Assembly: GCA_964461135.1 (NCBI GenBank)
Contig: CAYWTB010000001.1
Location: 8,082 to 72,081, forward strand
Direction of reading: 5' to 3'
DNA length: 64,000 bases
Source: an uncultured Caldithrix sp.
GTDB lineage: Bacteria; Calditrichota; Calditrichia; RBG-13-44-9
Shown here: positions 1 through 25,356 of the stretch, piece after piece
Numbering within the stretch: position 1 is the first letter of the stretch
Layout of the letters: each line of letters opens with the position of its first letter
Position numbers and translations under genes: made by a program
The notes under the pieces: model-generated
What the model was told of the DNA's origin: nothing
The model's input: only the letters and a program-made list of their open reading frames with translations
Database searches by the model: none

Positions 1-708
1 CACCTTGACGTTAAAATTTCCAATAAATCCGGACACATGCTCAATTTCACTGTAAGCTAAAAGCTTTATTCGGGGATGTCGACCGACATCCATCATCTTC
101 GGTCCCAGAATTCATATGGAACAATCCATGGTCGGATAAGTCTTATCCAGTGCCGCCATTATACCACCGATGCTGGGTTCTTTTTCCACCAGGTAAACCT
201 GATGCCCTGCATCTGCCAGATCCAGCGCCGTCTGAATGCCCGCCACGCCTCCACCCACCACCAGCGCGCTTTTTGTCACCGGTACCTCTGCCTCAGTTTG
301 CGGTTCCAGAACCCGGGCGCGAGCCACTGCACTTTTTACCAGATCTTTGGCTTTGGCAGTAGCTGCCTCTCTTTCGTTCTGATGCACCCAGCTACAGTGT
401 TCCCGGATATTGGCCATTTCATACAGGTAGGGATTTAAACCTGCATCCGCCACGCATTGCCTGAAGGTGGGTTCATGAATTTTAGGTGTACAGGAAGCCA
501 CAACCACACGATTCAGTTTGTGTTCCATGATGGCCCGCTTGATTTCATTCTGGCCCGGATCAGCACAGGTGTATTTGTTGCGTACCACTACTACTACATC
601 ATCCAGCGTCTCAGAATATTTTGCCACCTCAGCGCAATCCACCGTGCCGGCAATATTCAGACCGCAATCACATACAAATACACCGATTCGTAATTTTTCT
701 TCATTCAT
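1..708 (-). CDS. hdrA: Heterodisulfide reductase subunit A (HdrA) paralog. Selenoprotein with in-frame UGA at 112..114. 5'-proximal part only; the CDS continues past the window start.
   Basis: Starts [21 protein letters not shown] (HdrA N-terminal 4-Cys domain). An FAD-binding GxGxxG domain follows ([18 protein letters not shown]), ending ...[33 protein letters not shown]. The frame stays open through position 1 after the TGA. The TGA replaces the second Cys of the conserved HdrA DCxxC(I)L(A/G)PK motif. Confidence 0.8.
61..111 (-). promoter_or_regulatory. Candidate SECIS hairpin immediately 3' of the UGA (mRNA GGAUG-UCGGUCGA-CAUCC)
   Basis: An 18-nt stem-loop at 74..91 lies about 20 nt downstream of the UGA. 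The hairpin segment is nucleotide-identical to the one after the second hdrA UGA apart from one loop base. The codons between UGA and hairpin differ at wobble positions. Confidence 0.35.
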
Positions 709-764: not shown

Positions 765-1532
765 TTAAATGGGACCCTCCGGATATTGGGTAAATTCGGA
801 AATGGAATCGATCATCTTCCGGACGCGCTTATCATACGGATTTAATTCCAGAGCTTTATTAAGACTGTAGAGCGCCTCATGGTGTCTTTCCAGATTGTTA
901 TAAGCCTTGCCCAGGTGATAATAAGCCGCTTCGTGATCCGGATGAACTTTCAGAAGCCTTCGCAGTACTTTTATGGCCTCTTTATTCTCTCCCATGGTTA
1001 AATAAATGATTGCCAGGTCATATAAGGTAATGAAGGACTGCGGGTCCCTCTTCAGTGAATTCAGCAAAGATTCGATTGCCTGGTGTGTATGGCCTGCCCG
1101 GTAATTCATGAGGCCCAGCCAGTAATATGCCATGCTGAATTCCGGGTCAATTTCCACCACGTGGTGCATGGATTTTATAGCCTGGTTTAGCTGAGCAGAC
1201 CGGAAATAACACAGACTCAAATGATAATGAGCAAGTGCAAAATTGGGATCGATTTCCAGGATTTCCTCAAATGTTGAAATTGCTTTCTTAATGTGGCCTT
1301 TTAAATAATACAGGTGTCCCAGATCATGACGGTATGATATATTTTCAGGTTCCTGGCTGATTTTCTTCTTTATTTTCTCAATTGCATCCTGCAGCTTTAC
1401 GGTATCCGAAAATTTTTCGTTGCCAATTTTAAATTGAGATGATTTTACAGTTTTTTTTGAACTTTTCTTGGCATCAGACAATTTTTTAATCCCCTTTTCC
1501 TTTATCTCAACACAGTCTACAACGGAACACAT
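765..1532 (-). CDS. Tetratricopeptide-repeat (TPR) protein
   Basis: Multiple 34-aa TPR-like repeats (AxxYYxLGxxYxxxGxxxxAIxxFxxALxLxP pattern repeated). Lys-rich C-terminus. Confidence 0.7.
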   Translation of the reverse strand: MCSVVDCVEIKEKGIKKLSDAKKSSKKTVKSSQFKIGNEKFSDTVKLQDAIEKIKKKISQEPENISYRHDLGHLYYLKGHIKKAISTFEEILEIDPNFALAHYHLSLCYFRSAQLNQAIKSMHHVVEIDPEFSMAYYWLGLMNYRAGHTHQAIESLLNSLKRDPQSFITLYDLAIIYLTMGENKEAIKVLRRLLKVHPDHEAAYYHLGKAYNNLERHHEALYSLNKALELNPYDKRVRKMIDSISEFTQYPEGPI

Positions 1533-1906
1533 TTATATCCGTAATGGATAATTCCTGCCGCACCGTCCTCCGAAATACGGCGGAATTCTATTCTTAAGGG
1601 CATTCCGGTGGCCAGTTTTTTCAAATCGCAATCCGAAATCTGTGAAAGAATCTTTACGCCTTCTTTTAAACGCACAATTCCAATGGCATAGGGAACCTGG
1701 TCTGAAAACCGGGAAGGAGCTACATGAATGATGGTATAGGTTTCCAGATTCCCTTCCCTGGAAAGGGTAATGGTTTCAAATTTCCGTTCTCCGCATTCTG
1801 CACAAACCAGCCTTTTCGGGAAATGAACATTTCCGCACTTCCGGCATTTTCCGGCTTCCATTCGGTAGCGATGAGGCATTTCGCGCCAATATTTTGAGAC
1901 TGACAT
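1517..1906 (-). CDS. DUF35 / Zn-ribbon + OB-fold protein (thiolase-HMGCS scaffold partner)
   Basis: CRKCGNVHFPKRLVCAECG zinc-ribbon followed by an OB-fold-like segment, about 129 aa. Translationally coupled to the upstream thiolase by a start/stop overlap at 1906. Confidence 0.75.
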   Translation of the reverse strand: MSVSKYWREMPHRYRMEAGKCRKCGNVHFPKRLVCAECGERKFETITLSREGNLETYTIIHVAPSRFSDQVPYAIGIVRLKEGVKILSQISDCDLKKLATGMPLRIEFRRISEDGAAGIIHYGYKCVPL

Positions 1907-3066
1907 TACACCACCTCCAAAATATGAACAAGAGTACTTCCCCCGCTTCCTCCCATGTTCTGGGAAAGGCCGGTTCGGGCGTTTTCCACCTGCCGGGCAC
2001 CGCCCTCCCCCCGCAGCTGAGTGACAATTTCCACAATCTGAGCAACTCCGGTAGCTCCCACCGGATGACCTTTCGATTTCAATCCTCCGCTCACATTTAC
2101 CGGGATCTTACCTCCCAACCGTGTTGCGCCTGAGGCTGTAGCGTCCCCGCCCTTCCCCCGGGCTGCAAAGCCCAATTCTTCAATCACACATATTTCTGCG
2201 ATGGTAAAACAATCATGAACCTCACACAGGTCAATTTTTTCCGGGGAAGTTTCTGCCATTTTGTAGGCCAGTTGTGCTGCTTTTGCGGTTGCCGGCAGGG
2301 AGGTCAGATCGGATCGGTTGTGTAACGCTATGCTGGCTGTGGCATGACCGAAGCCTTTTATTCTTACCGGAGGTTTTTTGGATATCTTTTTAGCCAGATC
2401 CAGCGGGCACAGGATTATGGCGGCAGCTCCATCGGTTATGGGTGAGCAATCCAGGATTCGGAGGGGATCGGCAATCATAACCGAATTCATAACCTGTTCT
2501 AGGGTTATTTTCTGAGGGTACTGAGCCAGCGGATTCATTGAACCGTGGTAGTGATTTTTCACCGCCACTTCGGCCAGCTGTTCACGGGTAGTACCGTATT
2601 TCAGCATATGAGATCTGGCCATCATAGCGTACAGTCCCGGAAAAGTGATGCCATGATAAACCTCGTAATCCTGGTCGGCAGCGGTAGCCAGTGCATAGGT
2701 AGCTTCATCCGTACCCACATCAGTCATTTTTTCCACCCCACCCACCAAAACCACGTCGCTTAATCCCAGGGCAACATCCATATAACCCATTTTTACAGCC
2801 AGGCCTCCCGATGCACAAGCGGATTCCACCCGGGCTGCCGGAATGGGGGTTACTCCCAGGTAATCTGCCATAAGGGCAGCCAGGTGTTCCTGGCCGGTAA
2901 AAATTCCCGCTGTCATATTACCAATATACATGGAGTCGATCTTATCCACCCCGGCATCATCAATAGCGGATTGTGCAGCCTCCACAAAAATATCCCGCAG
3001 AGAACTCTCCCATAATTCCCCCCATCTGCTCAAACCAATGCCAATCACTGCTACATCACGACTCAC
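1906..3066 (-). CDS. Thiolase family protein (acetoacetyl-CoA thiolase-like, SCP-x/archaeal type)
   Basis: [11 protein letters not shown]...ESACASGG (active-site Cys) ...GHPVGATG. 386 aa, thiolase fold signatures. Confidence 0.85.
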
Positions 3067-3105
3067 ATTCCGCTCCTTGTTTTTGCCTGCTCATATTTAT
3101 TGCCA

Positions 3106-4152
3106 TCAACTGTTTTTAATTATTTTTCGCCGGTATTTCGAATAAAGACCATAATCGAGATATATTTTTTCACCCTGAATGAGATCCCACGTTTTAGGAG
3201 CAGCGTCCCTCACCCTGCTGATTCTGTCGGTAATCTTCCAGATAAAGCCGTCGCTTCCCGCACCCGAGCCGTAAGATACCATAAAGATCAAATCCCCGGG
3301 ATTTGACACATCCAGGATGGCGGTTAGTCCCAGGGGCGACGAACCGGAGTAGGTATTTCCGATTTTAGGGCAGAGTAATCCCTGTGAAATCTGATCCTTG
3401 CTGAAACCCAGCATTTGTCCCACCTTGGTGGGGAATTTTCCGTTGGGCTGATGGAACACGGCATAAGCAAAATCGGATGGTTTCAATCCCGATTTATCCA
3501 GCATTGTTTTACCACACTGATATACGTGCTTAAAATACGCGGGCTCGCCGGTAAAACGGCCACCATGTTGCGGATAGAACTGGTGTTCCCGGCGCCAGAA
3601 GTCCGGTGTATCACTCATGAAGGAAAAGGTGAGTTCACAGCTAGCAATCAAATTATCTTTTCCCATGATAAAAGCCGCCGCACCGGCCGAGGCTGTATAC
3701 TCCAAGGCATCGCCGGGCGCGCCCTGGGAAGTATCCGCCCCCACCGCCAGGGCGTATTTCATGCTGCCGGCCTTTACCAACTGCAGGGCAACAAACATTG
3801 CCTCCGTTCCCGCTTTACAGGCAAATTCAAAATCGGCGCAATGGGCGTCCGGAGTGGCACCGATAGCTTCTCCCAGGGTTGTCCCGCTGGGTTTAACGGC
3901 ATAAGGGTGCGATTCAGAACCCACATAAACCGCTCCGATATCCGAGGCCCGGATACCTGCTCTGGCCAATGCCCGGCGGGACGCTTCCACAGACATGGTA
4001 ATGGTATCCTGATCGGGAGCAGGCACGGACTTTTCCTCTACCATTAATCCCTTACGGTAACTTTCCGCATCTGCCCCCCACTGGCGGGCGATTTCTTCAA
4101 CCCGGATCCGATATTTTGGAACATAACTGCCATATCCAACAATACCAACCAT
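3106..4152 (-). CDS. Hydroxymethylglutaryl-CoA synthase-like condensing enzyme (archaeal type)
   Basis: MVGIVGYGSYVPKYRI...ADFEFACKAGT... 348 aa. Initiation-condensing-enzyme fold with catalytic Cys. Typical of the HMGCS that partners with thiolase and DUF35. Confidence 0.75.
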   Translation of the reverse strand: MVGIVGYGSYVPKYRIRVEEIARQWGADAESYRKGLMVEEKSVPAPDQDTITMSVEASRRALARAGIRASDIGAVYVGSESHPYAVKPSGTTLGEAIGATPDAHCADFEFACKAGTEAMFVALQLVKAGSMKYALAVGADTSQGAPGDALEYTASAGAAAFIMGKDNLIASCELTFSFMSDTPDFWRREHQFYPQHGGRFTGEPAYFKHVYQCGKTMLDKSGLKPSDFAYAVFHQPNGKFPTKVGQMLGFSKDQISQGLLCPKIGNTYSGSSPLGLTAILDVSNPGDLIFMVSYGSGAGSDGFIWKITDRISRVRDAAPKTWDLIQGEKIYLDYGLYSKYRRKIIKNS

Positions 4153-4215
4153 ACCATTCTCCTTGTCTTAAATACAGCCCTGACCAAAGAACTTCAATCT
4201 CTTTGGACCTGAATA

Positions 4216-5469
4216 TCAGGCGATTGCCGGTTTAAAAATAAATGTGGCAACGGTTTTGTCATCGCCGCCCATATTGATCATCATCCCATAAGGTCTCCCG
4301 GATGTTAACGGAACCTGGTACTCCTCCGCCCTTCCGGTCAGTTGCTGCCAGAGATCTACCGCCTGGCGGACACCCGTCCCGCCGGTAGGATGACCAAATC
4401 CGATAAGTCCACCGCTGGCATTTACAGGTATTTGGCCGCCTATAGCCGTCTTTTTTTCACTGATAAAATCCGCAGCTTCCCCTTCCTCCACTATGCAGGC
4501 GGCTTCCAGGGCAAGTAACGCCGTTATGGTAAAACAATCATGAATTTCCATGACACCGATGTCGGACGGTTTCAATCCTGCGCTTTCATAGGCTTTTTCG
4601 ACTGCTTTCTGAGTGGTGGTCAATCGGGTAAGATCTTTTGGCGGTTGCTTAATATCATCAACGGCGATTCCCAGAGATACCAGTTCAATGGCATCCCTGC
4701 GATCAATATTCAGTTTTTTTAAGCCGTCTTCAGAAGCGACAATCAGGGCAGAACCTCCGTCAGTCACTTTGGAGCAATCAAAAACGTTTAAATGCTCAAC
4801 AAAATACTTGGGATTGGGTGGAGTCATACCAGAGGCAAAAAGATCGTCAGTGGAATTATGATATTCCTGGGCCTTGGGATTTTTCCGGGCATTTTGAATC
4901 GCCTGTTCATACCAGTGTGCCATGGCAGTCCGTATTTTTTCCTGGCCGTACTTCCGGTAGCAGGCACCCGCCCTCTGAGAAAATTTGTCAGGAAAGAAAT
5001 GCGCATGACCTTCTTTTCTTTCTCCCTCATAGTACCCTGCCCCGGCCAGAAAATCTGCCCCATATACCGCTTTTACCGAGTTCTGTACCTCAACTCCCAC
5101 TGTCAGGACAACATCGGAAATTCCGGAGAGAACACTTTTTATGGCGGTATAGACACCTAATCCACCCGAACCACAGGCTCCTTCAATACGGGAGCATGGT
5201 TTATACAATAAGGACGGATCAATGGAGGGAATGAAAGCGGCCAGATTGCCCTGACGGTTGAAACGTGCAGCCATAAAATTTGATACCACACCTTCATCGA
5301 TCAGGTCAGCCCGGTTATTAATCCGGGCAATTGCCCCTTTCCCGGCTTCAATGATGTAATAATCAATTCCCGGCCGCGGTTTTTTAGGATGAAATTCTCT
5401 TCGTCCCGATCCTAAAAATACCGTATTATAACCAGCGGTCAGAAATACAGGTTTAGTTAATTTATTCAT
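4216..5469 (-). CDS. Thiolase-like protein (acetyl-CoA C-acyltransferase family)
   Basis: 417 aa. ...CSRIEGACGSGG ... GHPTGGTG ... thiolase N- and C-domain motifs. Confidence 0.75.
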   Translation of the reverse strand: MNKLTKPVFLTAGYNTVFLGSGRREFHPKKPRPGIDYYIIEAGKGAIARINNRADLIDEGVVSNFMAARFNRQGNLAAFIPSIDPSLLYKPCSRIEGACGSGGLGVYTAIKSVLSGISDVVLTVGVEVQNSVKAVYGADFLAGAGYYEGERKEGHAHFFPDKFSQRAGACYRKYGQEKIRTAMAHWYEQAIQNARKNPKAQEYHNSTDDLFASGMTPPNPKYFVEHLNVFDCSKVTDGGSALIVASEDGLKKLNIDRRDAIELVSLGIAVDDIKQPPKDLTRLTTTQKAVEKAYESAGLKPSDIGVMEIHDCFTITALLALEAACIVEEGEAADFISEKKTAIGGQIPVNASGGLIGFGHPTGGTGVRQAVDLWQQLTGRAEEYQVPLTSGRPYGMMINMGGDDKTVATFIFKPAIA

Positions 5470-5515
5470 ATTATCCCCGGTTTTTTAATCACAACTGTAG
5501 CACCTGATATTTTCA

Positions 5516-6856
5516 TTAAATATATTGATTTATGGGTCCATACAGATGATAGAACCCATTGAGCAACACCCCATTTACATCATCTTCCGAGCGGGCGACT
5601 CCGCTCTTCACCAGATTCCCGGCAATTTCCTTACTGTTCCGGAGATAATCCCTGGCCAGCACGGCACCCGGAGTGCCATCGGATTTAAGATTCCGGAAAT
5701 ATTGGGCAAGCTTTTCCTCCTTTTGAGGATCGCTCAGCAGTGCCCTCCAGGGAACAAATCCCAGCGGAGGATTTCCGGTTTTTTCTTCTGTTTTTTGCTT
5801 CCAGTCTCCTTCCTCAAACAGACGGTACCCGGATTTATCCGGATCATATACTCCGGATGGCCGGTTCTTTTCATACTTTAAGAATCCGTCTTTCTGGCTT
5901 CCCTCCGGATTCTGACCTCCCAGAACTTTCTGTTCGACCAGTTCATCAACTACCTTACTGTGCAGCTTCTCCTTTGGAAAATGAGGATTCATGGTTCGGA
6001 GAATACATTGAAACACATCAATTCCCACGTAATCAATTAGTTGAAAAATACCCATGGGGCGGATGAGAAAATCCTGACTGATTCGATTGAGAATATAAAC
6101 CCCCTCTACAAAACCGTATTCTTTCTGCAATTTTTCTACCTGATCCAGAGCATACAACCCATCGCGCATGAAGTGCCCGTTGCCAATAAAACCAGCCACA
6201 TCATTGGATGGAATGAGAGTTTTTCGTAGCCGTTTTCCGAGCTCCAGTCCCAATTCATGAAGCTCCGGATTTAATCCAACGGGCGAAATCACCTCTACCA
6301 GTTTCTGGACTGCCGGCGGATTGTAGAAATGATAACCGATGATTCTGCCACCTAATCCTGCCTGCTTATCCAGGAAACCTATGGGAATTGAGGAGGTGTT
6401 GGTGAGAAAGAACGCATCGTCTGAGCAAATCTTTTTTACTTTTTTCAGCAGAGATATCTTTAAATCCGCATCTTCCAGAACTGCTTCGAATATCATCCGT
6501 GAATTTTTCAACTGGCTCATATCAGTACTGATCCGGATATTCAGGAAAAAATCATTCACAAACTGGTTAATGAACTCATGATTTTCCACCAGTTCCTGAT
6601 GATCCTGGTATGCTTTCCGTAACATCCCGATATTTCTTTCCGCATGCTTGACAGCCTGGGTTCGGAGGTACTGCAGCAATCCTTCCAGCCTGGCGGCATC
6701 AGTATCAATGAGGTGCAATTCGCAGGTATCGTTTTTATGTTCGGGTGACAGACGCTGCATGGTCATTTCCTGGCCCATCAAAAGAGCAATTCCGCTTCCC
6801 ATTTTGCCGGCAGCACCTATTACACCCACATTACAAAGACGTTCATTCAATGTCAT
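5516..6856 (-). CDS. 3-hydroxyacyl-CoA dehydrogenase (long form, NAD-binding)
   Basis: VGVIGAAGKMGSGIA Rossmann motif and HBD-family C-terminal domain. 446 aa. Confidence 0.75.
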   Translation of the reverse strand: MTLNERLCNVGVIGAAGKMGSGIALLMGQEMTMQRLSPEHKNDTCELHLIDTDAARLEGLLQYLRTQAVKHAERNIGMLRKAYQDHQELVENHEFINQFVNDFFLNIRISTDMSQLKNSRMIFEAVLEDADLKISLLKKVKKICSDDAFFLTNTSSIPIGFLDKQAGLGGRIIGYHFYNPPAVQKLVEVISPVGLNPELHELGLELGKRLRKTLIPSNDVAGFIGNGHFMRDGLYALDQVEKLQKEYGFVEGVYILNRISQDFLIRPMGIFQLIDYVGIDVFQCILRTMNPHFPKEKLHSKVVDELVEQKVLGGQNPEGSQKDGFLKYEKNRPSGVYDPDKSGYRLFEEGDWKQKTEEKTGNPPLGFVPWRALLSDPQKEEKLAQYFRNLKSDGTPGAVLARDYLRNSKEIAGNLVKSGVARSEDDVNGVLLNGFYHLYGPINQYI

Positions 6857-6923
6857 GCTCTACCTTTCTGGTATAAAGATTCTGGTATTACAGTTTCATA
6901 CACTTCTATGCAATCTGATTATA

Positions 6924-8066
6924 CTAATTCAGGTTTTCGGCAATAATCTCTGTCAGATCTTTAATTTTAAAGGATATCTCTTCTTTTAACTGCTTATCCA
7001 GAAGAGCACACTGAAAGTGTATCTGGCACTTGGGACAGGAGGTCACCAGAATATCTGATCCGGTTGCCTGAGCTTCCCTTAAACGCCGGGCCTGAATCTG
7101 TTTTGAAATCTGCGAACAGTTCATCCAGCTGCTTACCCCGCAACAGATGGCTCGTTTATGATGGTGAGCCATCTCGGTCAGTGAAAGCCCTTTCAGCTGA
7201 GACAATGCCTGCCGGGGAGCATCATAAATACCCATATGCCTGCCCAGGCGGCAGGGATCCTGAAAACAGGCGGTAAGCGGTTGACCTTTCAATGAAACAG
7301 TGGTTTCGGGGAGCCGTTGTGCTAAAAACTCACTCACATGCTGCACTTCAAAATCAAGCTTTCCGAATAGTCCGGCGTATTCGACTTTCAGGGTGCGATA
7401 ACATTCGGGGCAGGCGGTAATGACGTATTTGGCTCCCGATTTTTTAATCTGTTCAATGTTCTGTTCAGCCAGTTTTCGAAAATTCTTTAAATCCCCGTTC
7501 CAGTAAAAATCATGTCCGCAACATTTTTCATTGGGCAATACCTGGGGTTTAATATCGAAATGATTCAAAATTTTCATCATACTGCGGGCAATATTTAAAG
7601 GCTGGACCTCAAGATCAGAAAACAGCGCCTCATAGTAAGGCAGGCAACCCACAAAGTATAAATAATCTCCAGACGTTGATGTCTGGTATTCTTTGCTTAG
7701 CCAGTCCAGCCGCTGCTGTTTGAGATCGGGTGAGGTCATGATTTTTAGAATTGAATCCAGAATGCCGCCATGGGAGCAGGTACCTTCGCGGTTCTCCACG
7801 CCCATAAATTGCCGCATCAGCTGAATAAACTCGATATATTTTATATGAGACGGGCAGATGGTATCACATTGCTGACAGGTTAAACAGGACCACAAATCCG
7901 CTCCCTTCAGTCCATCAGGATGAGTATTCCTTATGGATCTGATCAGGATAAGCCGTGGAGAAAAAGTCTTCGAATGACGGGAAACCGGGCACACACCGGT
8001 GCATTTGCCACATTCCAGACAGGCAAAGGCATTGGTTTCCTGAATTTGTTTAAAATTAAATTCCAT
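6924..8066 (-). CDS. hdrD: HdrD-like (fused HdrC+HdrB) Fe-S / CCG-domain protein
   Basis: Two 4Fe-4S ferredoxin motifs (CLECGKCTGVCP, CLTCQQCDTICP). Two cysteine-rich CCG domains follow (CCGHD...CPECY; CCGVSS...CPKCQ). Confidence 0.75.
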   Translation of the reverse strand: MEFNFKQIQETNAFACLECGKCTGVCPVSRHSKTFSPRLILIRSIRNTHPDGLKGADLWSCLTCQQCDTICPSHIKYIEFIQLMRQFMGVENREGTCSHGGILDSILKIMTSPDLKQQRLDWLSKEYQTSTSGDYLYFVGCLPYYEALFSDLEVQPLNIARSMMKILNHFDIKPQVLPNEKCCGHDFYWNGDLKNFRKLAEQNIEQIKKSGAKYVITACPECYRTLKVEYAGLFGKLDFEVQHVSEFLAQRLPETTVSLKGQPLTACFQDPCRLGRHMGIYDAPRQALSQLKGLSLTEMAHHHKRAICCGVSSWMNCSQISKQIQARRLREAQATGSDILVTSCPKCQIHFQCALLDKQLKEEISFKIKDLTEIIAENLN

Positions 8067-8092
8067 GTCGAAATTCCACTTTCATTTAATAT

Positions 8093-8572
8093 TTAAGCAT
8101 TGGCGGCAATTTTATCTTTTTGTGCGGAGACGCTGTCTTCCTTAATGGATTTCAGGGGAGTAGGTCCCAGCTTCCTCACCTCTTCCACCATTTCCTTAAC
8201 AACTTTTACAAACTTGGGAAATTCAGCTGCAGAGATGAATTCCTGCCGTATTCTTTCCTTCTCAAATCCCAGCATTCTGACCACTGCCTTCAGTTTTTTA
8301 TATTGTTCCGCCGCCTTGCGGGCACCGAAACTGTAATGGCAATCCTCAAAGTGGCAGCCGGATACCAGTACTCCGTCCGCTCCCATCTCCAGCGCTTTCA
8401 GGACATGTGCGGGATTGACCCGTCCCATGCACATGGTACGAATGATCCGGATATTGGCAGGATACTGCATCCGGTTAATCCCGGCGGAATCAGCCGCGGG
8501 ATAACTGCACCAGTTACAGGCGAATACGACAATCCTCGGTTCAAACTCTTTCTTTGCAGCTTTTCGGGTCAT
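8093..8572 (-). CDS. mvhD: MvhD-like hydrogenase iron-sulfur subunit (HdrA electron-transfer partner)
   Basis: IVVFACNWCSYPAADSAG ... VSGCHFEDCHY: the MvhD signature. Confidence 0.85.
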   Translation of the reverse strand: MTRKAAKKEFEPRIVVFACNWCSYPAADSAGINRMQYPANIRIIRTMCMGRVNPAHVLKALEMGADGVLVSGCHFEDCHYSFGARKAAEQYKKLKAVVRMLGFEKERIRQEFISAAEFPKFVKVVKEMVEEVRKLGPTPLKSIKEDSVSAQKDKIAANA

Positions 8573-8621
8573 GTGTTAGTCTTTCTCCTGTCCGGTTGAA
8601 CTCTCCTGCGGGACTGCATTT

Positions 8622-11600
8622 CTAAACGGCCTCCTCTTCCAGTAAAAATGCCCTGAGCATGGATTCAATCTGGCGATCCCGGAAATGCTGAATGTCAATG
8701 GCACTGGTGGGACAGAAGGTTGCGCAGGTTCCGCATCCTTTGCAGAGGGCTTCATTAACTGTTGCCAGCATAATTCCACCCCTATCCTGCAGAGAGAGTG
8801 CACCGAATTCACACACTTCCACACAGGTACCGCATCCACGACACAAATCCTCCCTCACAGACGAAACCAGTGGTTCCATCAGAATTGTGGATCTGGCCAG
8901 CAAAGCATCTATTTTTGCGGCCACCGCATTAGCCTGTCCGATGGAATCGGAAATATCCTTGGGGCTCTGTACGCATCCGCAGATAAATACTCCTTCAATA
9001 TTGGTTTCCACCGGACCAAACTTGGGATGCTTTTCCAGTAAATATCCGTCCATACCCACCGGAACTTTTATGAACTGCTGGATATGTTCGATTGAGCCGG
9101 AAGAGGGACGCATGCCGACCGACAGGATCAGAAGATCAACCGGAACTTCTATATCGGTTTTCAAAGATGGTTCCCAAAACCGAAGAGTTTCCACATTCTT
9201 ATGGCCGGTCAGCCGCGGAAGATCCTGCGGCGTAAAGCGTACAAACCTGACTCCCAGCTCCCGGGCCTGCCGGTACATGGTTTCAGCTTCATGGTGATAT
9301 ACCCGGATATCACGGTTAAAAACGGTAACTTCTATTCCCCGCTGCCGTAAAGCAATCGACTGCTTAATGGCCGCCTGGCAGCAATATCTTGAACATTCGG
9401 GCAATCCTTCCGGCCCGCGGGACCCCACGCACTGGATAAATGCCACCTGTTTGATTTCTTTTCCGTCAATGGCCAGCAACTGCTCCTTCTTCAAACGATT
9501 TTCCAGTTCCATGTTGGTGATGACATTTTTATATTTGCCATACCCGAACTCATTCTTGACGGGTTCATATAAACTGAATCCGGTTGCCAGAACAATAGCA
9601 CCCACCATGAACGGTTTATTCTCAGACTTTCCGTTAGTGGATTTCAGAGTGACTTCAAAATTCCCCACGAAACCTTTAATATCCTCAATATCGGTATCTG
9701 TAAATATTTTTACTTTGTCTTTATTTAATTCCTGCACTTTACTCCGGATCAGTTCTTTACCGGACATTCCGCTGGGATAAAGGATCTCCAGCTCTTTTAC
9801 CCATCCTCCCAGGGCCTTGTCTTTTTCCACCAGCAGGACGTTGTAATCCCGTTTTCCCAGCTGAAGCGCCGTTTCAATGCCCGAAATTCCGCCACCGATA
9901 ACCAGCACGTCATGTCCGATTTCCATCTCCTTCGGCTCCAGCGGTTCCAGCTGCCGCACCCTGGCCACCGCCATGCGGAGCAGGTCTTTTGCCTTACGCG
10001 TGGCCGCATCCGCAGCCTGCCCATGAACCCAGGAACATTGATCCCGGATATTAGCCATCTCCAGCAGATAAGGATTAAGGCCCACCTTGCGCAAGGTTTC
10101 CCGGAATATCGGTTCATGAGTACGAGGAGTACAGGCAGCCACCACCACCCGGTTAAGACGGTTAGATAATATTTTTTCCTGTATATTCCTTTGAGTACTC
10201 TCGGCACAGGCGAAGAGGAGATCTTCGGAGAATACCACATCCGGCAATCCGAGCGCATAATCCTTGAGAGTTTCCACATCCAGAACACCGGCGATATTGG
10301 ATCCGCAATGGCACACAAAGACGCCTACCCTCGGAGATCCGCTATAGTCGTATTCCGGGATTTCCTCTTTGATTTCGGGCATTTTATGGTGGGTAAGAAA
10401 CTGGGCGGCTCTCACTGCCGCACCCGAAGCCTCTGCAATAGAATCGGTAATATCCTTGGGACCGGTGGTGCATCCACACAGATAAATGCCTTCACGCCGG
10501 GATGATATGGGATCTCCGCAACGGTCTCTGGGAAGGAAAAATCCGCGGCTATCGGTTTTGATCTCCAGAATTTCCGCCAGGCTGTGGGACTCGGCAGCCG
10601 GTACCACCGCTTCCGATAAAATAACCATGCCGGTGCGCAATTTATCCGTCTGTCCGGTTTCCACATTTTCATTGAGAATGACCAGATCTCTGCTGCCGGG
10701 GTCTTCCACAATGCGGGACGGTTTTCCTCTGATAAAATGAATATTTTTATCGTGTAACGCTCTCTGATAAAATTGTTCAAATCCTTTACCAAATGCACGG
10801 ATGTCAATATAAAAAATATCAACACTGGTCTTGGGATACATTTCGCGTATCAGCAGAGCACTTTTTATGGCGTTCATGCAGCATATTCTGCTGCAGTAAG
10901 GTATATCCCGGCGGATACACCGCGATCCCACGCATTGAATGAATGAGACCCGCTTCGGTGGTTTCTGGTCGGTAAACCTGACTAATTGTCCCCCGGAAGG
11001 GCCGCTGGGACTGAGCAGCCGTTCAAGTTCGATGCTGTTTACCACATTTTCGAAACGTGTATATCCGTATTCGCTGGCCTCCCGCGGATCATAATAATCA
11101 ATACCGGTGGCAATAATGACTGCCCCCACATCAATCTCTTCCGTTCTATCCGGCATATCCAGATCAATGCAATTTTTCTGGCAGACGTCCACGCATTTTC
11201 CGCAGGCAATGGGATTGGTACCAAGACAATCATCGGCAGACCGGATATAGGCGGATGGAACGGCTTGTGAAAATGGAGAGTAAATAGCTCGCCGCAGGCA
11301 TAATCCTTCATCAAACTCATTGGGCTGAACTACAGGACAGACGTCCGAACAATCTCCGCAGGCGGTACATTCCGCTTCATTTACAAATCTGGCTTTACGA
11401 AGAATTTTTGCTCGGAAATTTCCGGCCTTGCCTGAAAGTCTAACAAGTTCTGCATTGGTATACAACTGAATTCTGGGATGCCGACCGACATCCATCATCT
11501 TGGGACCGAGAATTCAGATAGCGCAGTCCATGCTGGGAAAAGTCTTGTCCAGCTTGGCCATGGTTCCACCAATACTGGGCTGCTTTTCCAGCAGGTATAC

Positions 11601-11699
11601 CTGGAATTGGGCATCAGCCAGGTCCAGCGCCGCCTGAATTCCGGAAATACCTGCCCCCACAATCAAAGCACCCTTGGGTCTTTCTGATCTGGAAACCAT
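8622..11699 (-). CDS. hdrA: Tandem-domain heterodisulfide reductase subunit A (HdrA). Selenoprotein with in-frame UGA at 11514..11516. About 1024 aa.
   Basis: The ORF track splits it into 11514..11699 and 8622..11498, but ...[27 protein letters not shown]... is in frame. Architecture: FAD domain ([19 protein letters not shown]), then 2x[4Fe-4S] ferredoxin and a 4-Cys [10 protein letters not shown] domain. A second FAD domain ([15 protein letters not shown]) lacking the Cys/Sec motif and a C-terminal 2x[4Fe-4S] ferredoxin follow. Confidence 0.85.
11463..11513 (-). promoter_or_regulatory. Candidate SECIS hairpin 3' of the UGA (mRNA GGAUG-UCGGUCGG-CAUCC)
   Basis: Stem-loop at 11476..11493. The same element is found after the UGA of the hdrA paralog at 112. 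Confidence 0.35.
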
Positions 11700-11809
11700 A
11701 CTTCCCTTTCCATTTGGAATTTACGTTACGTATATGGATAATTATTGGCTATCCGCAAATTTCAAATTTCAGATTTATGATAAATGACAACCAATAATCG
11801 AGCTTTACA

Positions 11810-12379
11810 TCAGGCAACACTTTTTTTAGGAGACTCCAGCAGACTTTTTCCGTATTGAAAACCGGTTTCAAAGGCTTTTAGATTGAGCTCTTCCGTTCCC
11901 GGAGGAACAGATGTTTCAACGGCTTTTTTGGTAGCCTCATAGGACGTAATCCCGGTAACGGCGGAGAAAAATCCCACCATAATAATATTGGTAACAATCT
12001 TGCGGCCCATTTCTTCCGCCAGGCGGGTGGCCGGAATGGCATAGGTGGAGACTTTTTTTGAATTCTTTGCAAGGTGCACCAGATCCTTTTCCACCAGTAA
12101 TATACCATCCTCCGGAATTTCTCCGCTGAATTTGTCATGCGCATCCCGGGACAGGAGGACTCCTATATTAGGTTGAATAAGGTAGGGGTAAAGAATCTGC
12201 GACTCGGAAATGATAACCTGGGCTGAACAGGAACTCCCGCGCGCTTCAGGTCCGAAACTCTGAATCAGGGTGGAATATTTATTATCATAAATAGCTGCTG
12301 CTTTCCCGATAATATAACCCGCCAGGATAATTCCCTGCCCGCCAAATCCGGCGATACGAATTTCACTGTTTTTCTTCAT
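11810..12379 (-). CDS. 2-oxoacid:ferredoxin oxidoreductase, gamma subunit
   Basis: EIRIAGFGGQGIILAG... Por/Vor/Kor gamma family. 190 aa. Confidence 0.8.
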   Translation of the reverse strand: MKKNSEIRIAGFGGQGIILAGYIIGKAAAIYDNKYSTLIQSFGPEARGSSCSAQVIISESQILYPYLIQPNIGVLLSRDAHDKFSGEIPEDGILLVEKDLVHLAKNSKKVSTYAIPATRLAEEMGRKIVTNIIMVGFFSAVTGITSYEATKKAVETSVPPGTEELNLKAFETGFQYGKSLLESPKKSVA

Positions 12380-13286
12380 GCACAACCCCGTAAGGTTTAA
12401 ATTTGTTCCCTAATTTCTTCTGCAGATATTCATTGTACTGATCCAGATAGGAGGGTTTATCTATATCAATAAATTTCCCAACCTTTATTTCTTCCTGAAA
12501 CTGGATAGAAACATCACGAACATCGGCACCATGTGCTATGACAGAATTATCATGATAAAATTTCATCAGATCCAGACCGCTTCCCAGGCGGTTTTTGCGG
12601 GCGTAGAGAGTTGTACAGGGGCAGATTATTTCCACAAAGGAAAAACCCTTTTTATGCAAGGCTTCATTTATAGAGTTGGTGAGCCGCCTGACGTGCAGGG
12701 CGGTCCAGCGGGCCACGTACACCGCACCACAGGAGGCTGCCAGCAACGGAAGATTAAAGGGATTTTCATAACTCCCATAGGGAGCGGTAGTGGCAATTGC
12801 AGTAAGCGGAGTGGTTGGTGCCAGTTGACCACCGGTCATGGCATATATAAAATTATTAATACACAATACAGTGATATCAAGATTGCGCCTGGCGGTATGG
12901 ATGAAGTGATTGCCTCCGATGGAAATCAGGTCACCATCCCCACTAAAAACCACTACCTTCAGTTTTGGCTTGGCCAGTTTCAGGCCCACGGCAAACGGAA
13001 TGGCACGGCCGTGAGTGGTATGAAAGGAATCCAGTTTAATATAACCGGCGATTCGTCCGCTGCAACCGATCCCGGACACAACACTGATATCCTCCTTTGG
13101 AATCTGTGATTTTTTCACTGCTTCAATAAAACAGGTTACCGCTGTTCCAATTCCGCAGGTCGAACACCAGATATGAGGAATCCGATCCATCCGCAGCCAT
13201 TCCGAGAGAGGATGTTCCGCACCGTTCTCCTGTTCTTTTTTAGTTTTTGTCCCGGGCTTGACTTTTTCGATAACTTCGGCTTTCAT
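12363..13286 (-). CDS. 2-oxoacid:ferredoxin oxidoreductase, beta subunit (TPP-binding)
   Basis: WCSTCGIG...GIGCSGR...GDGD TPP-binding motifs. Start ATG overlaps the alpha stop (ATGA). Confidence 0.85.
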   Translation of the reverse strand: MKAEVIEKVKPGTKTKKEQENGAEHPLSEWLRMDRIPHIWCSTCGIGTAVTCFIEAVKKSQIPKEDISVVSGIGCSGRIAGYIKLDSFHTTHGRAIPFAVGLKLAKPKLKVVVFSGDGDLISIGGNHFIHTARRNLDITVLCINNFIYAMTGGQLAPTTPLTAIATTAPYGSYENPFNLPLLAASCGAVYVARWTALHVRRLTNSINEALHKKGFSFVEIICPCTTLYARKNRLGSGLDLMKFYHDNSVIAHGADVRDVSIQFQEEIKVGKFIDIDKPSYLDQYNEYLQKKLGNKFKPYGVVHEEKQ

Positions 13287-14443
13287 TTATGTGCCTCCTT
13301 AATTGCCTCTTGGATACATTCCGGCCTGTGAACCGTTCCACCGCCATGGGGGACAAGTAAAGTCTTACATTGTCCGCCTGTACACCGTTCAACCTCATAA
13401 ACAATCTGGCCGTAATTCATCTCCGGTACCACAAACGCCTTTATTTTGGGAGCCAGCTTCCGAATCAGATTTTCCGGAAACGGCCATACAGTAATGAGAC
13501 GGACATGACCGATTTTTTTAATTCCATCCTCCTGCGCCAGCTGAATTCCTCGCAGCGCAACCCGGGAAGTTATACCATAAGAGATCACCACAATTTCAGC
13601 ATCATTCAGATTTTCTTCTTCGTAAATATAAATATCATCAGCGTTCTTTTTAATTTTATCTATCAGGCGGTGAACACATTTCTCCTGAGTCTGCCAGCTC
13701 ATGTCAGGATATCCCCGTTCATCATGAGTCAGTCCGGTCACATGAAAAAAGTGGCCGCGACCCGCCTCTACCATATCGGGTACCAGGTCTTCTCCCGCTT
13801 CGAAGGGCAGATATTGTCCAGGCTTTTTACTGGTAAATCGACGGGGAAACAACTCAATTTTTTCGGGTTCCGGAATCACCACTTTTTCAGTCATATGGCC
13901 GACGCATTCATCCATCATGAATAAAACCGGTACCCGGTATTTTTCAGATAAATTAAAGGCGGTAATGGTAAGATCGAAGCATTCCTGCGGTGAATTGGGG
14001 CAGAGGGCAATAATTTCGTAGTCTCCGTGTGATCCCCAGCGGGCCTGCATCATATCCGCCTGGCCGGGAAGTGTAGGCAATCCGGTTGAGGGTCCGCCCC
14101 GCTGAACGTTCACCACCACGCATGGAGTTTCCAGCATGACCCCCAGGCCAATATTCTCCATCATTAGTGAGAATCCCGGACCTGAGGTTACCGTCATGGA
14201 TTTTGCCCCTGCCCATGATGCTCCCAGGATAGCCGCCATGGAAGCAAGTTCATCCTCCATCTGAATGAACATACCACCTACCATGGGAAATCGTTCGGAT
14301 ATCCGCTCGGCGACTTCGGTTGAGGGAGTAATCGGATATCCCGCAAAGAACCGGCAGCCTGCCGCCAGACCACCTTCCGCACAGGCCTTATCACCATCCA
14401 GATAATGCATGCCGGTTAATACCCCTGCCGAATCAGCTTTCAT
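13283..14443 (-). CDS. 2-oxoacid:ferredoxin oxidoreductase, alpha subunit
   Basis: GYPITPSTE...VTSGPGFSLM family motifs. Start placed at the internal ATG (MKADSAG) preceded by AAGGAG. The upstream extension in the ORF track overlaps the delta gene. Confidence 0.85.
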   Translation of the reverse strand: MKADSAGVLTGMHYLDGDKACAEGGLAAGCRFFAGYPITPSTEVAERISERFPMVGGMFIQMEDELASMAAILGASWAGAKSMTVTSGPGFSLMMENIGLGVMLETPCVVVNVQRGGPSTGLPTLPGQADMMQARWGSHGDYEIIALCPNSPQECFDLTITAFNLSEKYRVPVLFMMDECVGHMTEKVVIPEPEKIELFPRRFTSKKPGQYLPFEAGEDLVPDMVEAGRGHFFHVTGLTHDERGYPDMSWQTQEKCVHRLIDKIKKNADDIYIYEEENLNDAEIVVISYGITSRVALRGIQLAQEDGIKKIGHVRLITVWPFPENLIRKLAPKIKAFVVPEMNYGQIVYEVERCTGGQCKTLLVPHGGGTVHRPECIQEAIKEAHK

Positions 14444-14714
14444 GTGCTCGCTCCTTTTCGTTCTGAAGTACACAATATATCGCAAATTCCGGGCATAACA
14501 TCTCACACAGCTGACAATGAACACAGATAGTCCCATTCTTTACAATCGGGGGATGGTAACCTTTGGAATTGAATTCTGTGGAAAGTTCTAGAACATCTTT
14601 GGGGCAATATTCCACGCAAAAACCACACCCTTTACATCGTTCCCATAGAATATGAAGCTCTCCGTGAGGAATTTTTACCCGGTCGATATCCAACGGTTTA
14701 CGCCAATATTTCAT
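14433..14714 (-). CDS. 2-oxoacid:ferredoxin oxidoreductase, delta subunit (2x[4Fe-4S] ferredoxin)
   Basis: CKGCGFCVEYCP and CVHCQLCEMLCP motifs. 93 aa. Confidence 0.85.
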   Translation of the reverse strand: MKYWRKPLDIDRVKIPHGELHILWERCKGCGFCVEYCPKDVLELSTEFNSKGYHPPIVKNGTICVHCQLCEMLCPEFAIYCVLQNEKERAHES

Positions 14715-15994: not shown

Positions 15995-17041
15995 TTAATA
16001 TAACTGTTCCCTTGGTGAAACCGGACCTTCCAGGGCTTCCGGTTTTATTTTTCCGGTCAGGGATTTCAGAAAGGCCACAATATGATTTGCTTGGTCGGAG
16101 GACAACTCTTTTCCCAATTGAAGTCTGGCCATCATGGGAACTACCCGGTGCAGGTTATCCACGCTGCCATCGTGGAAATAAGGTGCGGTCATTTCCACAT
16201 TCCGCAGGGGGGGTACCTTGAATACATACAGGTCCGCCGTATCCCCGGTAACAGCAAACCTGCCGGAATCGATTTCGGTACTTCCGATCAGTTTCCAGTA
16301 GGGCTCAATAATGCCAAATTTTTCATACTGCCCGCCACCCACCAATACTCTGTTATGACAATCTTTGCATCCGGTATCCATAAATATTTTCAAACCCTTC
16401 TGTTCTTTTTCCGTAAGGGCATTGGGATGCCGCTTCAAAAACTGATCAAAGCGGGAAGGAGTTACCAGGGTTCTTTCCCAGGCACCAACGGCCAGCCCGA
16501 AATTTCTGGCATTTAAAGGGACAGAGTCATTGGGAAACGCTTCTTTAAACAGTCCCTGATAACCGGCAATGAAATTCATTTTTTCTTCTGCCTGTTCATA
16601 GGATTCCAGACCATAGGAGCCATGTCCCAGCAAAGCTTTCTGTGCCTGATCCTCCACAGATTTACGGTTGCCGATCCAGTGCTGGGATATCTGCAGAGCT
16701 GAATTCAGAACGGTGGGAGCATTTCTGGGATTGAGCCGGTAATTATTCCCGATCGATTTTTTTAATCCGTCGGTGCCATACAGGTTCATCCAGTGACATT
16801 TGAAACAACTGGTTGTACCATCGATGGAAAGGCGGGTATCATAAAACAGCATCTTCCCCAGTTTGGTTTTTTCGGGGGTTATGAGATTATCGCCCGAAAT
16901 CATTTTCCCCGGAAGAACCTGGAAATAATTCCGGGCTTCGCTGACCAGGGAGTTCTTCTTCCCGCAGGTTAATAAAACGCCACTCGAAATGATAAGTACC
17001 ATCATAAAAAGGTAAAAGGTCTTCATCTCGGTTGCCTCCAT
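15995..17041 (-). CDS. Di-heme cytochrome c peroxidase (CCP/MauG family)
   Basis: Two CxxCH heme motifs (CFKCH, CKDCH). Signal peptide. 348 aa. Confidence 0.85.
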   Translation of the reverse strand: MEATEMKTFYLFMMVLIISSGVLLTCGKKNSLVSEARNYFQVLPGKMISGDNLITPEKTKLGKMLFYDTRLSIDGTTSCFKCHWMNLYGTDGLKKSIGNNYRLNPRNAPTVLNSALQISQHWIGNRKSVEDQAQKALLGHGSYGLESYEQAEEKMNFIAGYQGLFKEAFPNDSVPLNARNFGLAVGAWERTLVTPSRFDQFLKRHPNALTEKEQKGLKIFMDTGCKDCHNRVLVGGGQYEKFGIIEPYWKLIGSTEIDSGRFAVTGDTADLYVFKVPPLRNVEMTAPYFHDGSVDNLHRVVPMMARLQLGKELSSDQANHIVAFLKSLTGKIKPEALEGPVSPREQLY

Positions 17042-17134
17042 TAAATGTTATCCCCCAAAAAATTTATGCCGTTCGGCCCGTTCTAGCTTTTTTCACCATA
17101 ATAGCGGATTTTATTTCCAGAATATTATGAAGCT

Positions 17135-19225
17135 TTATTTCTCAACTTTCAGAAACCTGGCATTTACCGCCACAATCACGGTACTCATGGTCATCAGCAC
17201 TGCTCCCATGGCCGGACTCAACAGGATACCCACGCTATAGAGTGCACCCGCTGCCAGAGGAATAGCAATGGCATTGTAACCGGTGGCCCAGACCAGATTC
17301 TGCACCATTTTGCGATATGTTGCTTTCGCGAGCGCAATAATATCCACCGCATCCTGGGGATTACTGCGAACCAGCACAATGTCCGCTGTTTCCACCGCTA
17401 CGTCTGTCCCGGCACCGATGGCAATTCCCACATCGGCCTGTGCCAGCGCCGGTGCATCATTCACACCATCACCGGTCATGGCCACTACCAGCCCGCGGGA
17501 CTGTACTTCTTTAACTTTCGCTGCTTTCTGTTCCGGCAGCACCTCCGCAAAATAATCATCCAGGCTAAGTTCCGCCGCCACATATTCCGCCACCCGTTTA
17601 TTATCCCCGGTAAGCATCATGACCTGGATGCCCATTTCCTTCAGACGGGAAATAGCCTCTCTGGATTCATCGCGGATAATATCTGCCAAAGCGATGGCAC
17701 CCTGCGGTTTATCATCCAGCAGTAAAAATACAACTGTTTTCCCCTGAGAATTCAGTTCCTCTACCTTTCGGTTTTTCACCTCAATACTTTTCTCCTGCAG
17801 GTAGCCGGGACTCACCACCTTTACCAGCTTCCCATCCACCTTTCCCTGTGCTCCTTTTCCAGGGATAGATTTGAAATCAGACACTTTTTTTATATTCCCG
17901 GCCGATTGAACAATTCCTTTGGCGATGGGATGTTCTGAGTTCTGTTCCACCGCTGCGGCATAGGCCAGTATCTGCAAGTCATTCAGGTCCTCCGCCAGCG
18001 CCACTGTATCAGTCACCCTGAAATTACCCTGAGTGAGCGTACCGGTTTTGTCGAAGATTATAGCCTGCAGATTGCGTGCTTTCTCGAAGGCCGCCCGGTT
18101 GCGGATCAGCAGTCCGTTGCGGGCGGAAATGGCGGTTGAGACCGCCACTACCAGCGGTACTGCTAAACCCAGAGCATGTGGGCAGGTAATGACCATCACC
18201 GTTACGGTGCGTTCCAGGGCAAACACAAAATCCTTATGAACAATCACCAGCCACACGAACATGGTTATTGCACCGGCAGAGAGGGCAATAATCGTCAACC
18301 AGAAAGCGGCCCGGTTGGCCAGATCCTGAGTCTTCGATTTGCTTTCCTGGGCCTGGCGAACCAGCTCAACTACCTGCGAAAGATAAGAGTCCTTGCCTGT
18401 TTTTTCCACTTCAATGGTTAGGGATCCTTCACCATTAATGGATCCACCGATTACTTTCCTGCCCGTTTTCTTTGAGACCGGTCTGGATTCACCGGTTATC
18501 ATGGCTTCATTTACCGAACTTTCTCCTTCCACCACTTTTCCATCGGCCGGAATCTTCTCACCCGGTTTGACCAGTACCCGGTCACCTGAGACTAATTCAT
18601 CCAGGGGTACATCTTTTACACTATCATCTTTCATGATTTTATGTGCCTCGGAAGGCATCAGTTTGGCCAGTTCTTCCAGGGCCCGCGAAGCCCCCATAAC
18701 CGATTTCATTTCGATCCAGTGACCGAGCAGCATAATATCAATCAGGGTGGCCAGTTCCCAGAAAAAGATTTTACCTTTTACCCCGAATACCACTGCCGAA
18801 CTGTAGAAATAAGCAACGGCAATGGCCAGCGCAATCAGGGTCATCATCCCCGGATTTTTTTGTCGCAGTTCATCGAATAAACCCTTCAGGAAGGGCCAGC
18901 CCCCGTAGAAAAAAACAGCAGTGGAGAACAGGAAATTGAGAAAAAGATCACCCGAAAATCGGATGCTTTCACCCAAGCCCAGAAATCCCTGAATCATGGG
19001 AGAGAGCAGCAGAATCGGTATGGTAAGAATCAATGAAATCCAGAAACGTTTGCGGAAATCAGCCACCATGTGAGCATGGTGGCCGGCATGATTAGCGTGT
19101 CCGCCATCGCCGGTATGCTCCTCATGCATCACATCATGACCATGATGACTGACATGGCCATTGGGTTTTGTTTTCTCTTTCGCCTGGGTATCCTCTGCCG
19201 GGTGATGATGGTCCTGTTCGGGCAT
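17135..19225 (-). CDS. copB: Copper-translocating P1B-type ATPase, CopB-like (His-rich N-terminus, CPH motif)
   Basis: N-terminal HHHPAEDT...[11 protein letters not shown]...[15 protein letters not shown] motif ([12 protein letters not shown]), DKTGTLT and GDGVNDAP. Confidence 0.85.
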
Positions 19226-23637: not shown

Positions 23638-23752
23638 TAGTCATTCATTCAATGTCTGGTGTCGGTTGTTTGCGATCCGCAGCCGGCTTCCTTTCAATCA
23701 CCGCTTCAAAATCGGCAATCCGGAAGGGCCGGGACTACGGACCCTATAAAAC

Positions 23753-25327: not shown

Positions 25328-25356
25328 ATAAAATTATATTTTAAAATTCTCTTTTT

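Follow-up and report, generated by a model that had tools for sequence, protein, structure and literature searches.

Conserved hairpins downstream of in-frame UGA codons in two hdrA paralogs are very probably bacterial SECIS elements

The DNA analyzed here (hereafter the window) is a stretch of 64,000 nucleotides from contig CAYWTB010000001.1 of assembly GCA_964461135.1. On its minus strand it carries two paralogous genes for HdrA-type proteins, each containing an in-frame UGA codon that is followed in the mRNA by a short and nearly identical hairpin (Table 1). Based on a comparison with orthologous genes, each hairpin is very probably a bacterial selenocysteine insertion sequence (SECIS) embedded in the coding sequence of a gene for selenoprotein HdrA.

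Gene 1 encodes an HdrA-MvhD fusion and runs off the left edge of the window; with its TGA read through, the frame remains open up to position 1. Its whole length is 818 codons, and the remainder beyond the window edge was taken from an identical contig (JGI Ga0315555_1001999, locus L001; no mismatches over an overlap of 1142 nt). The predicted protein consists of an N-terminal Fe-S domain, a thioredoxin-reductase-like flavin adenine dinucleotide (FAD) domain, in which the UGA would specify selenocysteine (Sec) 199, and a C-terminal MvhD/FlpD domain. In a phmmer search against PDB, it aligned with the crystallized HdrA of Methanothermococcus thermolithotrophicus (5ODC_A, E = 1.6e-239) in a single unbroken stretch (residues 4-655) spanning the UGA. 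Gene 2 encodes a fused double HdrA that matched the same structure (E = 4.2e-202) in separate stretches, with residues 10-350 corresponding to 145-480 of 5ODC_A, 455-615 to 3-163, and 850-1015 to 482-646. Its first module comprises an FAD domain with an inserted ferredoxin, has the predicted Sec62 at the Cys197 position, and is devoid of an N-terminal domain. The second module contains the N-terminal Fe-S domain, an FAD domain without a Cys197 equivalent, and a C-terminal ferredoxin. FlpD, Fer4, and FAD domains were detected by Pfam in the proteins of the two genes. The closest HdrA ortholog (87% identity) was found in a Calditrichota metagenome-assembled genome; a tblastn comparison with its locus (L005) detected no upstream genes in common, so that a placement of the host in Calditrichota is based on this best HdrA match only.

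The window was also scanned for TGA codons that connect open segments with a length of 50 codons or more on either side. The TGA of gene 2 was the only one of this kind inside a recognizable gene, while that of gene 1 was missed by the length filter solely because the window stops 37 codons beyond it; the scan detected no further TGA-interrupted genes. TGA is the terminator of 15 of the 47 long open reading frames (ORFs) in the window, and the genetic code is therefore standard.

Table 1 Positions of the two hdrA genes, their in-frame UGA codons, and the associated RNA structures in the window
Feature	Position	Strand	Remarks
Gene 1, HdrA-MvhD fusion, 5′ part (codons 1-236)	1..708	-	From translation; ATG at 708
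UGA of gene 1, predicted to be read as selenocysteine 199	112..114	-	Aligned with Cys197 of M. thermolithotrophicus HdrA
Putative SECIS hairpin, gene 1	74..91	-	5′ arm 91-85, GGUC loop 84-81, 3′ arm 80-74; conserved core 75-90
Gene 2, fused double HdrA, 1025 codons	8622..11699	-	From translation; ATG at 11699, true stop at 8622
UGA of gene 2, predicted to be read as selenocysteine 62	11514..11516	-	Aligned with Cys197 of 5ODC_A
Putative SECIS hairpin, gene 2	11476..11493	-	5′ arm 11493-11487, GGUC loop 11486-11483, 3′ arm 11482-11476
Optional lower helix, 9 bp, gene 2 only	11466..11517	-	In minimum free energy and centroid structures; encloses the hairpin

The hairpins correspond to the 18-mers GGAUGUCGGUCGACAUCC in gene 1 and GGAUGUCGGUCGGCAUCC in gene 2, which are one base apart. 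A previous sequence-only reading of this stretch had pointed to these 18-mers, as well as to a second Sec-HdrA paralog with a frame open to position 1. We confirmed the former on the minus strand, and the latter is borne out by translation and by HdrA homology across the UGA. The structure, which had been drawn as a 5-bp stem with an 8-nt loop, had to be revised: RNA folding predicts a 7-bp stem closed by a GGUC tetraloop for both copies (−10.2 kcal/mol for gene 1 and −9.6 kcal/mol for gene 2). Accordingly placed, the sole differing base is located not in the loop, as had been assumed, but in the stem opposite a U (U-A in gene 1, U·G in gene 2). The distance from UGA to hairpin had been counted as four codons and is in fact 20 nt, i.e. 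6 2/3 codons (I-L-G-P-K-M-M); the three wobble differences reported for this spacer are correct (CUG/CUC, GGA/GGU, and CCG/CCC for gene 1/gene 2). Folding, which had been proposed as a check, returned a stable stem-loop with the loop beginning 27 nt after the UGA (16-37 nt allowed). Hairpin bases are numbered here starting at the U of UGA (e.g. pair 29:36, G32, and U33).

Compared with shuffled sequences, the folds were unremarkable, with z-scores of about −1.6 for the isolated 26-nt hairpins and −0.2 to −1.6 for folds of 56-76 nt. The thermodynamics of one sequence would by itself not have established the hairpin as an element. For gene 2, a lower helix was strongly predicted (9 bp), in which CUGAAUUCU (11517-11509, UGA included) pairs with AGAAUUCAG (11474-11466), sequestering the UGA; for gene 1, its prediction was weak. 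The lower helix of gene 2 also holds two GAATTC sites.

Within the window, the pattern GATGYCGGTCGRCATC occurred only at these two sites, with 0.1 matches expected when two mismatches are allowed. Given the codon usage of the window, random synonymous coding of M-D-V-G-R-H-P would generate the hairpin with p ~0.008 per gene. Around the site, both paralogs have the same degenerate amino acid at 40 positions but use the same codon at only 17 of them; inside the hairpin, four of five codons are shared and the fifth change preserves the pair. Taken alone, the two window copies are only suggestive, whereas the case for a SECIS, as far as sequences can make it, becomes decisive after the comparison with orthologs.

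The ortholog scan (one genome per species) yielded 80 loci, and the in-frame site was located in 76 plus the window. At the site column, 66 sequences have TGA and 10 have TGT or TGC. The TGA orthologs span more than 10 phyla, including Calditrichota, KSB1, Chloroflexota, Zixibacteria, Gemmatimonadota, Planctomycetota, Acidobacteriota, and Desulfobacterota, and the frame is intact on either side of the TGA. All 66 TGA sequences contain GAUG[U/C]C-GGU[C/A]-G[A/G]CAUC; 49 of them form seven pairs with a GGUC loop, 14 form six pairs with GGUC, and three form seven pairs with GGUA. The alignment is ungapped, so that the distance between UGA and loop is 27 nt in every ortholog. Cysteine orthologs with the same downstream nucleotides, which the sequence-only reading had named as an observation that would contradict a SECIS, were not found: none of the 10 has the full hairpin (Fisher p = 1e-12 versus the TGA set). 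When the hairpin was imposed on the sequences, its mean energy was −10.1 in Sec orthologs versus −3.1 in Cys orthologs. In two of the latter, L006 and L016, the peptide is the same, MMDVGRHP, but it is encoded with the codons GAC, GUG/GUA, GGC/GGA, CGU/CGG, and CAC.

Pair 29:36 covaries among the TGA sequences, with 38 CG, 21 UA, 7 UG, and no CA combinations (Fisher p = 1.3e-11). At the codon level, a change from Val to Ala (GUC to GCC) is always paired with a synonymous change from CGA to CGG, a compensatory pattern of the kind that the sequence-only reading had proposed to look for. Val to Ala is also the only amino-acid change tolerated under the hairpin. An approximate neighbor-joining tree, calculated from 236 residues downstream of the hairpin, implies at least 19 switches in the state of this pair, which therefore does not reflect one inherited event. 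Third-base entropy in the Sec genes was 0-0.11 bit at Asp+8, Val/Ala+9, Gly+10, and His+12, and 0.65-1.9 bit at all other degenerate codons between −20 and +30. For the Cys genes, entropies at codons +8, +9, +10, and +12 were about 0.9-1.75 bit. Asp+8 is encoded by GAU in 65 of the 66 Sec genes, despite GAC being favored at the other two Asp codons. Covariation and the invariant wobble positions both argue for selection at the RNA level, as the sequence-only reading had suggested. The RNAalifold consensus of the orthologs consists of the 6-bp core and nothing else.

For a search independent of the window sequences, we built a covariance model (R1) from 64 orthologs, leaving out the two rows of the window. 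Its significant matches in the window were the two sites only (40.6 bits, E = 2.6e-8 at 71-94; 40.3 bits, E = 3.2e-8 at 11473-11496), with the third-best match scoring 13.9 bits. Conversely, searching a metagenome collection with the bare 17-mer GATGYCGGTCGRCATCC gave 120 loci, among which 58 matches were found in an HdrA-type context; matches outside that context were in unrelated high-GC surroundings. In 57 of the 58 HdrA-type matches, a TGA is located exactly 24 nt upstream of GATG. The only other case (L172:4303-4350) is an HdrA ortholog with TGT (Cys) at this position that retains the intact hairpin GAUGCCGGUCGGCAUCC; plausibly, Sec was converted to Cys only recently here, leaving the SECIS as a remnant. 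Remnant signals after such conversions are known from other selenoprotein families (PMC1794560). Two metagenome contigs (L110 and L151) have two hairpin-bearing Sec-HdrA sites each, as does the window. In L110, a stretch of 44 nt from the TGA through the hairpin is identical between the two sites, which suggests a recent duplication or a double-HdrA fusion with Sec in both modules.

The hairpins were further compared with known bacterial SECIS elements. In the bacterial SECIS (bSECIS) model of bSECISearch (PMC13188914), the loop has 3-9 nt, the upper stem 4-16 bp, the distance from UGA to loop is 16-37 nt, and the minimum free energy is −7.5 kcal/mol or lower. The hairpins of the window lie inside all four ranges, with a loop of 4 nt, a stem of 6-7 bp, a distance of 27 nt, and energies of −10.2 and −9.6 kcal/mol. 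The model also places a G at loop position 1 or 2, usually followed by G or U (PMC13188914); among all 66 sequences, 63 have a GGUC loop, including the two of the window, and three have GGUA. Thus, the hairpins share with bSECIS elements a loop that opens with G-G and a position within the coding sequence shortly after an in-frame UGA. The loop of the E. coli fdhF SECIS, a SelB-binding hairpin defined by experiment, is GGUC as well. Like this element, the HdrA hairpin has a short upper stem-loop with G-U in the apical loop. The fdhF element is characterized by a bulged U17 in the 5′ arm, a 17-nt stem-loop starting 11 nt after the UGA, and the conserved loop residues G23 and U24 (PMC8659212).

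Several observations weigh against a SECIS. Unlike that of E. coli fdhF, the HdrA stem is perfect, without a bulge, and starts 20 nt after the UGA; the loop G-U is found at 32-33 compared with 23-24 in fdhF. Existing covariance models, whose use had been proposed together with the first description of the hairpin, did not recognize it: Rfam 15 gave no matches at gathering thresholds in the whole window, including both sites, and with E-values up to 10 positions 1-200 gave only chance matches to microRNA and small nucleolar RNA families. Only one of the seven stem pairs varies, so that classical covariation rests on this single pair, complemented by synonymous invariance elsewhere. The lower helix of gene 2 had to be rejected as a defining part of the element, being paired to 71.5% across orthologs and missing from the RNAalifold consensus. 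Finally, NCBIfam scans of the other ORFs detected no selA, selB, or selD in the 64-kb window, and ARAGORN found neither tRNA-Sec nor any other tRNA gene there. Weak matches to the SelD model were due to thiamine-phosphate-kinase and AIR-synthase-family proteins and remained below the cut-offs. We infer Sec decoding as a trait of the genome. Judged by its unbulged stem and its spacing, the HdrA hairpin is of the general bacterial SECIS type and not of the fdhF sub-type.

Alternative explanations were considered for both the hairpin and the UGA. The hairpin could be a mere by-product, without any RNA function, of a conserved protein sequence and biased codon usage, the coding of MDVGRHP being self-complementary. 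Indeed, bases in five of the seven stem pairs are already determined by the need to encode M, D, V, H, and P, partial stems with six of seven pairs persist in the Cys orthologs L048 and L075, and the shuffle z-scores of the isolated hairpins reach just about −1.6. However, the Cys orthologs L006 and L016 have lost the structure through five or six synonymous differences while keeping the same peptide, the wobble invariance of the 66 Sec genes is confined to the hairpin, and GAU is retained at +8 against the prevailing Asp codon preference. Moreover, the Arg codon follows the Val/Ala codon (no CA combination observed, 12 expected), and synonymous coding alone would seldom produce the hairpin (~0.008). 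As the hairpin accompanies TGA and is missing in TGY orthologs with the same peptide, we regard the by-product explanation as refuted and give it very little probability. An even smaller probability is assigned to a palindrome acting as DNA, i.e. as a site for protein binding, recombination, or restriction. GATGTCGGTCGACATC is a near-perfect DNA palindrome, and the gene 1 copy includes GTCGAC, a SalI site. Yet the U·G at pair 29:36 in gene 2 and seven orthologs can pair in the sense RNA only, with a C·A mismatch in the antisense; the GGUC loop is invariant and non-palindromic; the antisense strand scores just 11 bits with the R1 model; and the hairpin is strictly linked to an in-frame upstream TGA. 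Taken together, pairing by U·G, the non-palindromic loop, and the low score of the antisense strand exclude a role at the DNA level.

With regard to the UGA codons, they might be real stops, either in pseudogenes or in genes split into two separately translated units. Public gene calls do break at the TGA, giving products of 198 and 614 residues for gene 1, and an ATG is located just downstream. Furthermore, 55 of the 120 closest database homologs are devoid of the Sec/Cys site motif, and nearly all of these start at M(M/T)D[V/A]GRHP. Since this is the first Met after the Sec codon, they are therefore truncated gene calls, indicating widespread mis-annotation of Sec-HdrA in public protein sets. 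Real stops are scarcely credible, because the TGA occupies the same codon in 66 orthologs from more than 10 phyla with an intact frame on both sides, and because the Cys whose place it takes is essential to the structure and lies in the central part of the FAD domain, where a split would cut the Rossmann fold; they would also leave the conserved hairpin unexplained. Alternatively, the UGA could be decoded without a Sec system, by a reassigned code (Trp or Gly) or by near-cognate read-through with the hairpin as a generic stimulator. Downstream structures can stimulate read-through in other systems, and no Sec machinery was seen in the window. Nevertheless, we judge such decoding highly improbable: TGA serves as a regular terminator in the window and interrupts no other gene there, the site is aligned with Cys and alternates only with TGT and TGC, which is the signature of Sec/Cys exchange, and the loop G-G/U motif together with its spacing agrees with the SECIS model of the SelB type.

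If the hairpins are SECIS elements, then, following the established bacterial Sec pathway, SelB·GTP·Sec-tRNA(Sec) would bind the hairpin, which starts 20 nt downstream of the UGA, at its apical part. Once the UGA is in the A site, the tethered SelB would bring in Sec-tRNA(Sec) in competition with release factor 2, and translation would go on. Sec would then become residue 199 of the gene 1 product and residue 62 of the gene 2 product, in place of Cys197 of the methanogen HdrA. In crystallized HdrA, this Cys is provided by one HdrA protomer as a ligand to the N-terminal Fe-S cluster of its partner, and fused HdrAs typically pair a complementary Cys197 and N-terminal domain (PMC9012536). The N-terminal [4Fe-4S] cluster ligated in this way lies on the branch to ferredoxin in flavin-based electron bifurcation. 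The MvhD-fused product of gene 1 contains both the N-terminal domain and the predicted Sec and would therefore be expected to work as a homodimer, as in the methanogen. For gene 2, one module would give the Sec and the other the N-terminal cluster domain, with ligation taking place within one polypeptide. As in the fused HdrAs of anaerobic methanotrophic archaea (ANME) and Moorella thermoacetica (PMC9012536), gene 2 splits the Cys197 position and the N-terminal domain between its modules. Unlike in HdrA3/4 of ANME (PMC9012536), the order of the modules is reversed, with the Sec-bearing module first, and the ligand is encoded as Sec. Because the signal overlaps codons, it would also fix the peptide D-[V/A]-G-R-H-P and its codons; a replacement of Val by Ala can be compensated by the synonymous Arg change.

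HdrA is among the commonest bacterial selenoprotein families. It is an established selenoprotein of bacteria and archaea with Sec at about position 200 (PMC1794560, PMC4989117). In 2006, genomes with as many as seven genes for Sec-HdrA had already been listed, together with hdrA-hdrA fusions and with clusters that also contain FrhD/MvhD and GlpC-type genes; such sets were reported for Syntrophobacter and Syntrophus (PMC1794560). Sec-HdrA has thus been known in bacteria since then, including multi-copy and fused forms, and the genes of the window belong to this group. In agreement with the selenoprotein HdrA of Deltaproteobacteria, Clostridia, and Methanococcales, they have one Sec at ~200 replacing a conserved Cys; as in Syntrophobacter and Syntrophus, there are several paralogs, an hdrA-hdrA fusion, and neighbors of the MvhD/FrhD and HdrBC/GlpC-like types. 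Differences include (i) MvhD and the CCG protein, which are Cys forms in the window, and (ii) the neighborhood, which comprises a 2-oxoacid:ferredoxin oxidoreductase and beta-oxidation-type enzymes but no hydrogenase. Compared with archaeal Sec-HdrA, whose SECIS is in the 3′ untranslated region, the hairpin of the window genes is in the coding sequence. Calditrichota, to which the host probably belongs, are not among the lineages named for Sec-HdrA in the cited literature.

While bacterial SECIS elements bear little sequence resemblance to one another (PMC13188914), the HdrA hairpin is near-invariant across phyla (16 nt, one covarying pair) and has no conserved lower helix. It is tempting to consider the HdrA SECIS as a distinct, sequence-invariant bacterial class (16 nt, more than 10 phyla, several diverged HdrA subfamilies), and the paralogs of the window as an undescribed selenium-dependent Hdr/MvhD bifurcating module tied to 2-oxoacid:ferredoxin oxidoreductase and beta-oxidation-type enzymes of a Calditrichota-like bacterium, with Sec as an inter-domain Fe-S ligand. 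We put this forward tentatively, and as a whole it appears rather unlikely. If true, an invariant class would mean either that recognition by SelB follows a uniform code or that a Sec-HdrA cassette has repeatedly spread by horizontal transfer, carrying its signal along. Three aspects may be new, albeit unsurprising: a 16-nt signal that hardly varies among more than 10 phyla; the coupling of the Val/Ala replacement to a synonymous Arg change; and the gene context with 2-oxoacid:ferredoxin oxidoreductase, MvhD, an HdrBC-like protein, 3-hydroxyacyl-CoA dehydrogenase, enzymes resembling thiolase and 3-hydroxy-3-methylglutaryl-CoA synthase, and a DUF35 protein.

For annotation, recognizing the putative SECIS restores the 818-residue HdrA-MvhD fusion and the 1025-residue double HdrA, both of which are split by automatic gene callers, and it would mark the organism as a selenium user. 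As the hairpin is nearly specific within HdrA-type genes, it could be used as a tag to find and repair Sec-HdrA genes in metagenomes. The series of Sec and Cys forms leads from intact hairpin with TGA over intact hairpin with TGT (a single ortholog) to Cys forms of greater age, in which the hairpin has decayed, and it illustrates cleanly how in nature a protein sequence can be constrained by an RNA signal. The current understanding of selenocysteine decoding is unchanged by these findings.

The two genes have neighbors that extend over positions 765-14714 on the minus strand; all share this orientation and could be organized in a single operon or in several. The first part comprises, in order, the delta, alpha, beta, and gamma subunits of a 2-oxoacid:ferredoxin oxidoreductase, the double HdrA, MvhD (Cys form), and an HdrC/B-like protein with Fer4 and CCG domains. 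These are followed by a 3-hydroxyacyl-CoA dehydrogenase, a thiolase-like protein, a protein similar to 3-hydroxy-3-methylglutaryl-CoA synthase, a further thiolase-like protein, a DUF35/ChsH2 OB-fold protein, a TPR protein, and HdrA-MvhD. This gene set suggests an Hdr-type electron-bifurcating module linked to acyl-CoA metabolism and not to a hydrogenase. Downstream of gene 1, locus L001 continues with a zinc-ribbon ORF, a POR-gamma-like protein, a GlnD-like protein of 978 residues, and a second HdrB/C-like pair (CCG, Fer4), and reaches a gene of the Transposase_mut family (L001:9209-10456) ~8 kb past the left edge of the window.

Further into the window, a metal-efflux cluster is located at 15995-26655 (minus strand). 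It encodes a di-haem enzyme similar to MauG/MbnH, a copper P-type ATPase of the CopA type, a small membrane protein, and the components of a CusCBA/TolC-type efflux system, i.e. a CusA/CzcA RND pump, a CusB-like adaptor, and a TolC-like outer-membrane protein. At 41420-42166 on the plus strand, we noted a member of the geranylgeranylglyceryl/heptaprenylglyceryl phosphate synthase family (NF003198, 271.5 bits; NCBIfam cut-off 247). This family consists of archaeal-type ether-lipid enzymes, whereas the window is otherwise bacterial.

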